Assembly (NCBI RefSeq): GCF_050920415.1
Contig: NZ_CP169310.1
Direction: 5' to 3' (one strand)
Length of the DNA: 64,000 nucleotides
Source of the DNA: Escherichia coli
GTDB taxonomy: Bacteria > Pseudomonadota > Gammaproteobacteria > Enterobacterales > Enterobacteriaceae
Position numbers: made by a program. This document shows, piece by piece, positions 12,001 to 15,235 of the stretch (its first letter is position 1; the number at the start of each line of letters is the position of its first letter).

Positions 12001-15000
12001 GCTCCGGATAACCTTATCGCCAGAGATTTTAAGGCGGAGCAACCTAATCAGAAATGGCTGACAGATATCACGGATTTCCAGCTCCCTGCAGGTAAAGTCT
12101 GGCTATCACCGCTCGTGGACTGCTTCGATGGAAAAGTTGTGAGCTGGTCTCTCAGTACACGTCCCGACGCTGAACTGGTCAACACCATGCTGGATAATGC
12201 GGTCGAAACGTTAAATGCTGGCGAACGACCGGTGATACACAGTGACAGAGGTGGGCATTATCGCTGGCCAGGCTGGCTGGAAAGAGTGAATGCAGCAGGT
12301 CTTATTCGCTCAATGTCCCGTAAAGGATGTTCACCTGATAATGCCGCATGCGAAGGCTTTTTTGGCAGACTGAAAACGGAAATGTATTATGGGCGTAAAT
12401 GGTCAGACATCACGCCAGAAAAGTTCATGCAGCAAGTGGATGCTTACATCAGATGGTATAACGAGCGGCGTATAAAATTATCGCTGGGTGCCGTCAGTCC
12501 CAAAACGTACCGCCAACAATGCGGACTGGAATGATAAAGCAGTCCAAGAAATCGTCCGCATCCCCGTTTCTGTGCGCGGTCGGAGTGGTCCCGACGAGGG
12601 TTTACCCGAAGTCGGGGCGTATCTCCGCGTTAGCGGGCCGTGAGGGCCGCTTACGAGCGTGTACTGAGAACTTCCAGCAAGGATACAACCCACGCCGTTA
12701 CTGGTCGCGGAAAAATCTAGGTTTCCGGCTGGAACCCCTTGATCTGAGCTCTCAGTAAATATCAATACGGTTCTGGCGAGCCGCTTACGTTCTTTGAACG
12801 CAGCGGCTATCTCACGGGTGGTCATCCCTTTGGCATACAACGAGAGGAGCTGGTTATCCATCCCGGTAATACGGGTCTGATTTTTCTTTACCAGTTGTGG
12901 TTCGAAGGTACCGTCACGATCGCGCGGAGTACGCAGTTCCAGTGGACCGTCGCCTGTGATAACGGTCTTTGTGGAATAACCGTTGCGGGAGTTAGCTCCT
13001 GGTCTGGACTGATTTTTCTCATACCCAAGATGGTGTGTCATCTCTGCATTGAGAGCGGCTTCAACGCTGAGCTTTTTTAGCAGCCGATCAAACTGACTGA
13101 GGTCTTCAGGGGTTTTGAGGTTTTTGGCCAGTTCGTTAGCCAGAGCCTGTAACTGTTTTTCGTCCATAAATTAACCTTCATTTGATGCTGGATTGAACAT
13201 ATCAAAATCAGGCAATTACACAAATCTATGTACAGGCTCCACCAAGGGAATATCGACGTCAGCCAAGCTGAAACTATGTGATTGCCGTCAACAGTTACTG
13301 TTCAGTATTCTCCGTCCATCAATGGATTTAGCCGAATATAGTGATATATTATCTAAATTATAATAACCTTTATATTTCTGTTTTAAAAAGTTTATAAGCT
13401 CCATCTTATTTCCTACAAGATATTCACCAAAATTTGGATCAAAGAATAAAGAATGCCGACCATTTTTTATAAATGCTGTAGTATGTGACATTGTACCATT
13501 TGAAAGAGATAAATTAATAATATAAGAATCATCCTTTATATTATAGAGTTCAACAGGATTTACACCCCCTTTTATTTTTTTTAGGTGTATCTTTCCGTTT
13601 TTTATTAAGTATGGGTCTTTAATGGTTCCGCTTTCATATGCAAGTAACATTCCTCTGTATCTTGAGGAAAATGCATATGTCTTGCTAAAAAAAATGAAAT
13701 CACACTTTATGTCGTTTAATTTGTTATATATATAATCAATACACATAAAAAAACATAATCCATTATATATGCTTCTGTCTGTATGTTGAGACTTTATGAA
13801 TTCAGTTTGAGAAAACTTAAATATATTTTCCATATTTATCTGTATGTTTTCCATGTTTATTTCTGAACTTTAGGGTAAGATTATAACTTAATCTGACATA
13901 GGTTTTTATGATATATATCATTGAAATTGTAATTTCATATATATATACATGAGAGTGAGTGGTACTGTAAGTGACCTGAATACTTCAGGGCTTCACTGCG
14001 AAATTCAGGCGAATGCTGTTTACGTGTTTTTTTGCTGGTTGATACTGTTTTTGTCATGTGAGTCACCTCTGACTGAAAGTTTACTCACTTAGCTGCGTGT
14101 CCACTATTGCTGGGTAAGATCAGGTCTGTTGCCTTCTTTCCGCAGGACGGGCAGGCACGGCTGCCGCATGAGCAGGTCAGGTACTTTACGTGATGACAGT
14201 CCGGGTTATCACACCCGAACTCTTTTACACCCAGTATCCGTGTGCACAGATAAAACATTCTCCAGGAAAACCGGGGCGATTCATTGATTTGCGGGGGATA
14301 AATCATTGCATCTCTCCGGAGGTTTTTGGTCATCAGCTCAGGGAACACTCACCATGGGGGTGGGTATTGCGCCTACAAAAACGCTGGCTAAAAGTGCACA
14401 GTGGGCAACAAAGCAATGGCCACAGTTTTCCGGTGTGGTCGCGCTGACAACAGAAAACCGTAATCGGATCTTGAAGCTACTGGGGCTGCAGCCAGTTGGT
14501 GAGGTCTGGGGAGTAGGACGCAGACTGACGGAAAAGCTGAATGCGCTGGGTATTAACACAGCACTGCAGCTGGCGCAGGCTAACACGGCATTCATCCGGA
14601 AAAACTTCAGCGTCATTCTTGAGCGTACGGTACGCGAACTCAACGGCGAGTCCTGCATATCCCTGGAAGAAGCACCACCGGCAAAACAGCAGATTGTCTG
14701 TAGTCGCAGTTTTGGTGAACGAATCACAGACAAAGATGCCATGCACCAGGCTGTTGTTCAGTATGCAGAGCGGGCCGCAGAGAAACTACGTGGGGAGCGT
14801 CAGTATTGCCGGCAGGTGGCGACATTTATACGAACGTCACCCTTTGCAGTGAAAGCCCCCTGTTACAGCAATGCCGCTGTGGAAAAGCTTCCATTCCCCA
14901 CACAGGACAGCCGGGACATTATTGCCGCAGCATGCAGAGCGTTAAACCATGTCTGGCGTGAAGGGTACCGCTATATGAAGGCAGGAGTCATGCTGGCTGA

Positions 15001-15235
15001 TTTCACACCATCGGGTATAGCGCAGCCGGGATTATTTGATGAAATCCAGCCCCGTAAAAAAAGTGAAAAGTTAATGAAAACACTCGATGAACTGAACCAG
15101 TCGGGAAAAGGGAAAATGTGGTTTGCGGGGCGAGGAACCGCCCCTGAATGGCAAATGAAACGGGAAATGTTGAGTTGTCAACGCCAAGATTATTGGCCGT
15201 TTTTCGCCATTTTTAATGTCCGCTATTGGTCATTA

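Follow-up and report, generated by a model that had tools for sequence, protein, structure and literature searches.

The window, a stretch of 64,000 nucleotides, belongs to a large enterohemolysin (ehx) plasmid of Escherichia coli of the Shiga-toxin-producing type (a 'pEHEC' plasmid). Between fragments of insertion sequences on its left and a pair of partition genes on its right it carries the remains of a umuC-like polymerase gene, impB. Breakpoints were determined by three-way alignment with the intact gene and an IS-free sister plasmid, combined with blastn and tblastn searches of reference pieces against the window. Both searches displayed three pieces of ImpB in the 64 kb, which together with an internal deletion site are arranged as follows.

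14280..14346, plus strand: impB codons 104-125/126 (FIDLRGINHCISPEVFGHQLRE), not in frame with the remaining codons (alignment, translation, tblastn)
14346..14347, plus strand: site of a frameshifting deletion of 19 bp inside the gene, the missing bases being AGGTAAAAAGCTGGACAGG, nt 377-395 of intact impB (alignment, gap table)
14347..15175, plus strand: impB codons 133-408, comprising thumb/HhH, little finger (IMS_C) and DUF4113 C-terminal region (profiles, alignments)
17305..17355, plus strand: impB codons 409-424 and stop codon (QCYTTKWRDIPLARLG followed by TAG at 17353-17355), 100% identical to intact impB

A plus-strand frame beginning with MGVGIAPTKTLAK near 14350 and ending at 15175 was apparent from a six-frame ORF listing and from the raw sequence. 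The UmuC subfamily model NF002955 (NCBIfam) matched the remnant over profile positions 131-410 of 422 with 515.5 bits (E=1.1e-154), which is above its curated cutoff of 431 bits. Pfam recognized the little finger (IMS_C, E=7.8e-25) and DUF4113 (E=1.2e-10), and IMS_HHH was also matched. Given these domains and the subfamily match, the UmuC-family nature of the remnant, as put forward in the original prediction, is beyond doubt.

The alignments to ImpB and UmuC, suggested earlier as a check, defined the breakpoints as well as the type of the gene. Over 276 residues the retained protein shows about 97.5-97.6% amino acid identity to ImpB of plasmid pSE11-1 (IncI-gamma/K1, NC_011419.1) versus 58% to UmuC of E. 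coli K-12, and the remnant is therefore not a copy of the chromosomal gene. Judged against these two proteins, it is of the ImpB type of I-complex plasmids. Near-identity to I-complex impB was accompanied by a conserved impB-stbB-parM synteny. At the DNA level, the remnant is 96% identical to intact pSE11-1 impB (98.2% without gaps). A megablast search of PLSDB revealed thousands of IncI-complex and related plasmids that match only from position 14280 on, at ~96%; these matches fall inside an intact gene labelled 'Y-family DNA polymerase'. A PDB sequence search returned DinB/Dpo4-type relatives alone, without any Pol V entry, and served only for placement of the SIDE motif.

The impB DNA begins at 14280-14284, and the remnant spans codons 104-408 of 424, with nt 310-1224 placed at 14280-15175. 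ImpB residues 1-103 occur nowhere in the window. Accordingly, the catalytic residues D6, D101 and E102 are missing, the SIDE motif ending at residue 102 just ahead of the breakpoint. The N-terminal palm domain with the catalytic carboxylates of a Pol V catalytic subunit is lacking from a remnant that starts at residue 104. Because 19 bp (nt 377-395) are deleted, codons 104-125 and 133-408 lie in different frames. The in-frame block comprises 276 codons (ImpB residues 133-408, 14348-15175), and the last two bases of codon 132 are located at 14346-14347. The reading frame is thus interrupted twice, by the 19-bp deletion between 14346 and 14347 and by a 2125-bp IS insertion between 15175 and 15176.

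The 276-codon block corresponds well to the ~275 C-terminal codons claimed originally; codons 104-125 and 409-424 survive in addition. The interval assigned to the remnant at that time (14128-15175) ends exactly at an IS junction at 15175, while its first part, 14128-14279, consists of IS debris and impB starts at 14280. The frameshifting 19-bp deletion had been overlooked.

At its 3' end the gene is interrupted by a complete insertion sequence flanked by a short duplication.

15172..15175, no strand: GAGT, left copy of the target-site duplication (comparison with the uninterrupted site)
15176..17300, minus strand: complete IS21-family element, ISEc62-like, 2125 bp (Pfam, inverted repeats, ISEc62 match)
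15233-16030, minus strand: istB of the ISEc62-like element (Pfam IstB_IS21, E=2e-88)
16027-17199, minus strand: istA of the ISEc62-like element (Pfam rve and Mu-transpos_C_2)
17301..17304, no strand: GAGT, right copy of the target-site duplication (comparison with the uninterrupted site)

The element at 15176-17300 shares 99.9% identity with a copy named ISEc62 by PGAP in NZ_AP025742.1. Its ends, TGTCAACGCCAA and TGTCAGCGCCAA, match in 11 of 12 terminal bases, and it exhibits the features of the IS21 family, namely istA and istB, TG...CA inverted repeats and a short target duplication. GAGT occurs once in pCFSAN004181P and pSE11-1, where the site is uninterrupted, and twice in the window. Nucleotides 1221-1275 of impB were found at 17301-17355 with 100% identity, the first four bases being the duplicated GAGT. 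Owing to this 4-bp duplication and to the intact remaining impB codons beyond the element, the event is a simple insertion: the ISEc62-like element arrived by simple transposition, and no impB sequence was deleted. Trimming of the 3' end by an IS21 element, as assumed in the original prediction, was rejected, since the insertion is clean and the gene's 16 final codons, including the stop that follows them, are still in place. The junction between the ISEc62-like element and impB had no match in PLSDB, nor in any of 5426 complete RefSeq E. coli genomes.

Ahead of impB lie three nested IS fragments.

13983..14122, minus strand: IS3 left-end fragment (IRL and first orfA codons), 140 bp, cut internally at 13983
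14123..14245, minus strand: piece from the interior of an IS91-family transposase gene (zinc-binding domain, ~codons 44-85), 123 bp, no element end
14245..14283, plus strand: IS629-like (IS3-family) right inverted-repeat end, terminal 39 bp, outer end abutting impB

The IS629-like end displayed 92.9% identity over 42 bp to the right end of IS629 from pO157 (E=2e-6 in a plasmid-wide search), and the homology stops exactly at the IS629 terminus. Just 39 bp of the element are left at 14245-14283, which excludes orfA and orfB. Its final TTCA (14280-14283) is also impB sequence; the junction is therefore ambiguous by 4 bp, and the impB breakpoint is given as nt 310-313. Elsewhere in the window, IS629-like DNA is confined to a 163-bp left-end fragment at 55157-55318. 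It does not lie beside the missing 5' part of impB, because blastn and tblastn found no such part in the window. The IS3 fragment is 96-98% identical to IS3 copies over positions 134-273 of a query covering window positions 13850-14130, and its ORF reads 'MTKTVSTSKK..RKQHSPEFRSEALK'.

The middle fragment was identified by Pfam Zn_Tnp_IS91 (35.9 bits) and by NCBIfam transpos_IS91, and is 96.8% identical to the interior of a 399-aa IS91-family tnpA of pE89-1. It contains only ~41 zinc-binding codons and neither the HUH/Y2 catalytic domain nor oriIS or terIS. An IS91-family element had been held responsible for trimming the 5' side of impB, which could have occurred by rolling-circle transposition or one-ended capture. 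The fragment is indeed only 35 bp away from the impB breakpoint, and IS91-family/ISCR2-like elements have been reported as insertions in the related rumB gene of SXT-type elements (PMC4542609). However, the homology is internal to tnpA, includes no element end and stops at 14245, and the 39 bp separating this piece from impB correspond to the IS629 terminus, with the match running exactly to the end of that element. Direct truncation by an IS91-family element is thus very unlikely, and we rejected it as the 5' cutter. On the basis of these matches, the element adjoining impB is an IS3-family end and not the IS91-family fragment, which is one junction further to the left.

impB encodes the UmuC-type catalytic subunit and belongs to the impCAB operon, whose place is the leading region of IncI-complex and related plasmids. 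In pSE11-1, the polymerase gene is the third gene of a DinI-like/umuD/polymerase operon, which corresponds to impC-impA-impB; the name impCAB is in use for I-complex plasmids (PMC10286972). Neither blastn nor tblastn detected a homologue of ImpC, ImpA or UmuD anywhere in the 64-kb window, and the upstream partners umuD/impA and impC are accordingly missing there. This supports the proposed loss of umuD together with the 5' part of the polymerase gene. Backbone genes were recognized on both sides of the gap.

2250..4646, plus orientation (collinear), genes on the minus strand: leading-region backbone with DUF1380 genes, a DNA methylase and a small hypothetical gene, left edge of the replaced segment
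17357-17773, minus strand: stbB-like partition gene, ancestral convergent neighbour of impB (ORFs, synteny with pSE11-1 and pCFSAN004181P)
17766-18746, minus strand: parM

The stbB-parM pair (17357..18746) begins 1 nt from the impB stop codon. The same arrangement exists in pSE11-1, where impB is convergent with stbB-parM and 1 nt separates the two stop codons. On the left, the backbone at 2250-4646 is 90.6% identical to pRM10466-1 (4224-6644 of the piece compared) and 89.6% identical to pSE11-1 (1-647 of the piece compared), in both cases in the same orientation. As the leading-region genes are found there in this orientation, ~2.35 kb of backbone containing DUF1281, impC, impA and the 5' part of impB has been replaced. 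In its place is a mosaic of ~9.6 kb with a second parM/stbB pair, a RelE/CopG toxin-antitoxin pair, a MarR gene, IS fragments and a gene for a YopT-type protease. No recognisable IS end was seen at the left edge of the replacement (about 4646-4648), and part of the replacement may for this reason be the product of plasmid-plasmid recombination and not of an IS-mediated deletion.

All these data point to a dead impB remnant on an ehx plasmid, which very probably resulted from an IS629-like insertion, a rearrangement and a later ISEc62-like insertion. The remnant is non-functional: it has lost the palm with all of its three catalytic carboxylates as well as the promoter, impC and impA, and the rest is frameshifted and split. 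The postulated loss of plasmid-encoded SOS mutagenesis holds for the impB locus and for the 64-kb window, which cannot encode the polymerase; a statement on the whole plasmid is beyond the scope of this analysis.

The junction coordinates, the target-site duplication, the missing parts and the synteny were observed directly. For the order of the IS629-like insertion, the rearrangement and the 19-bp deletion as well as for the deletion mechanism, we infer the following course of events. The ancestor probably had the gene order methylase, small orf, DUF1281, impC, impA and impB, the latter convergent with stbB-parM. An IS629-like element would have entered impB by transposition, at nt 310-313 (codon 104/105). 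A later rearrangement, probably an IS-mediated deletion or recombination, would have removed the IS body together with ~2.35 kb (DUF1281, impC, impA and impB nt 1-309) and left the 39-bp IS end joined to a piece from inside an IS91-family tnpA. This piece would then have been struck by IS3, which was itself truncated afterwards; the gap is now occupied by the ~9.6-kb mosaic cargo. The 19-bp deletion presumably arose inside the impB remnant. As the last step, seen in this plasmid only, the ISEc62-like element entered impB at nt 1224 and generated the GAGT duplication. No intermediate was found in which an intact IS629-like element occupies this site of impB, and all 16 RefSeq records with the junction carry the IS91 fragment; for lack of such an intermediate, we infer the IS629-like insertion and the rearrangement from the 39-bp remnant at 93% identity.

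The 276-codon block might alternatively be expressed as a truncated ImpB' fused to IS-encoded residues and act as a decoy in translesion synthesis of the host. An open frame exists at 14306-15319 with a possible ATG start at 14355, and the block retains the little finger, DUF4113, a QPGLF motif and the region that aligns with the beta-clamp-binding motif of UmuC. The pN/pS ratio relative to pSE11-1 impB is 0.27, but this value is based on 16 substitutions, too few to judge relaxed selection, and most of the divergence probably predates inactivation. Several observations argue against expression. A promoter and terminator scan of 13850-15400 revealed nothing above the shuffled background near the remnant; four promoter sites were found versus 1.8 +/- 1.2 expected, none of them adjacent to the block. 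The ATG at 14355 is not preceded by a convincing ribosome-binding site, PGAP labels the region a pseudogene, and the ISEc62 insertion strips the native C-terminal 16 residues from any product. Moreover, the operon promoter and the LexA box were lost together with impC. Expression of such a protein is therefore extremely improbable. The same degree of doubt applies to the corresponding model, in which the block would be transcribed from an upstream or IS-derived promoter and a dead ImpB' would compete with Pol V or Pol IV for the beta clamp or for UmuD'/RecA. If this were true, the plasmid would dampen SOS mutagenesis instead of adding to it.

Of 5426 complete RefSeq E. coli genomes, 16 contain the left scar and the 19-bp deletion, always on plasmids of 167-242 kb, and the scar-bearing plasmids that were inspected carry enterohemolysin genes. 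In PLSDB, megablast displayed eight large plasmids (167-225 kb) that match window positions 14100-15175 at 99.2-100%. The query 14100-15200 hit a single place in seven of these eight records and two places in NZ_CP012498.1. The scar is also present on three Escherichia sp. plasmids in PLSDB. The sister plasmid pCFSAN004181P (NZ_CP012499.1, E. coli GB089) is 100% identical over 14100-15175; it and the window are collinear base for base from position 1 to 15175 and, downstream of the ISEc62-like element, 100% identical through the ehx operon. An assembly artefact of a repeat-rich plasmid, for which the density of IS fragments and the absence of the ISEc62 junction from every other searched record could be cited, has next to no likelihood, as 16 complete genomes, assembled independently, and eight PLSDB plasmids agree exactly in the left junction and the 19-bp deletion, and the IS21 insertion shows perfect ends, a clean 4-bp duplication and exact impB continuity across the element.

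In pCFSAN004181P, PGAP annotates the umuC pseudogene CO57_RS01140 as 'frameshifted; incomplete; missing N-terminus', with coordinates that match the remnant exactly. The IS91-family piece is annotated there as 'transposase zinc-binding domain-containing protein', 'missing N-terminus and C-terminus'. The same pseudogene is thus already annotated in RefSeq sister plasmids, and the observation is an ordinary one that is already known; papers mentioning the sister plasmids (PMC7175801, PMC10562709) contain no discussion of the umuC remnant. Its biological weight is small, decay of accessory genes by IS traffic being routine on large virulence plasmids. The composite left scar, in the order IS3 end, IS91 tnpA piece, IS629-like end and impB codon 104, together with the 19-bp deletion sets apart one clade of large ehx plasmids and can serve as its marker. 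So far, the ISEc62 insertion and its GAGT duplication mark only the plasmid from which the window derives.

Finally, the remnant was compared with known systems. Chromosomal UmuC of K-12 (b1184) belongs to the same family and has the same domain order (NF002955). The impCAB operon of IncI-complex plasmids has been studied in pMS7163B (PMC10286972). The pSE11-1 impCAB region resembles the remnant in its convergent stbB-parM neighbours and the upstream leading-region genes. In contrast to pSE11-1, the remnant lacks impC, impA and impB codons 1-103, contains the 19-bp frameshift and has codons 408 and 409 separated by an IS21-family element. Plasmids of the pCFSAN004181P type share the left junction, the IS debris and the 19-bp deletion with the window, but are free of the ISEc62-like insertion, so that their remnant is unbroken to the stop codon.

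Other large plasmids carry different lesions. On pRM10466-1 (bovine faeces) and the 174-kb plasmid of 2014C-3097 (human stool), umuC is full-length, frameshifted and, at ~97% identity, of the same impCAB lineage. Unlike in the window, the lesion is a 1-bp deletion at nt 946, and the right-hand neighbours differ. impC is intact in both plasmids; pRM10466-1 also has an intact umuD, which in 2014C-3097 is frameshifted. Judged by these lesions, other large E. coli plasmids lost a functional impCAB in separate events, which fits the toxicity reported for overexpressed impCAB (PMC10286972).

The genes rulB (pWW0, integron-like elements) and rumB of SXT are insertion hotspots for mobile elements (PMC4542609). 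The rulB hotspot, a site-specific integrase target with a GAT repeat, is located 123 bp inside the gene. The impB breakpoints, on the other hand, are at nt 310-313 and nt 1224 and stem from ordinary DDE-type IS elements. A site-specific hotspot of the rulB type was rejected as their cause, since the position differs (123 bp versus nt 310-313) and evidence for site specificity is lacking. What rulB and rumB have in common with the remnant is that a plasmid-borne gene of the umuC family was broken by mobile DNA (PMC4542609).

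The 9.6-kb mosaic that replaces impC, impA and the 5′ part of impB is flanked by two ParM/StbB-type modules lying in opposite orientation, the left of which is absent from the I-complex backbone synteny. A toxin-antitoxin pair was located from the annotation of the collinear sister plasmid, pCFSAN004181P.

4822-6137, plus strand: left ParM/StbB-type actin-like partition module
7328-7887, minus strand: RelE/ParE toxin and CopG-family antitoxin pair
13288-13854, minus strand: intact ORF of 188 aa with a weak YopT-type cysteine protease domain
17357-18746, minus strand: right ParM/StbB-type actin-like partition module
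about 19159-19467, minus strand: 309-bp CDS with parM on one side and a ParA gene on the other (8931-9239 in reference sequence L001)

The protease ORF corresponds to WP_000427978.1, named 'YopT-type cysteine protease domain-containing protein' by PGAP. It matched the Pfam domain Peptidase_C58 weakly (25.7 bits, cutoff 23) and scored 26.5 with TIGR01586, under the cutoff of 52.95. The ORF, carried by an E. coli ehx plasmid, is surrounded by remains of IS elements. For the 309-bp CDS, the sister plasmid gives the label 'molecular chaperone GroEL', and pSE11-1, the IncI-gamma/K1 reference, gives 'hypothetical protein'; the GroEL label is probably an annotation error that has spread through RefSeq.

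Further IS sequences are present elsewhere in the window.

21248-21874: partial IS21-family copy, comprising the element's final 628 bp at the end upstream of istA
21906-22781: orfB of a complete IS3 copy adjoining the partial IS21-family copy
55157-55318, minus strand: IS629-like left-end fragment of 163 bp, 89% identical to IS629 of pO157

The partial IS21-family copy shares 87% identity with the ISEc62-like element that splits impB, and its outer 316 bp are 98.7% identical to a sequence in pRM10466-1. The IS629-like fragment is oriented opposite to the 39-bp right-end remnant beside impB, and no impB sequence adjoins it.

The window also carries the enterohemolysin operon ehxCABD, which marks the replicon as a virulence plasmid of the pEHEC type.

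23296-30419, minus strand: ehxCABD operon
23296-24735, minus strand: ehxD
24739-26856, minus strand: ehxB
about 26909-29920, minus strand: ehxA
29904-30419, minus strand: ehxC

Other plasmids have lost impCAB function by a different route. Full-length impB genes in pRM10466-1 (L007) and in the 174-kb plasmid of strain 2014C-3097 (L008), both at 8692-9962, share a 1-bp deletion at nt 946, accompanied in the 2014C-3097 plasmid by a frameshift in umuD. Inactivation of impCAB in these two plasmids is independent of that in the window.
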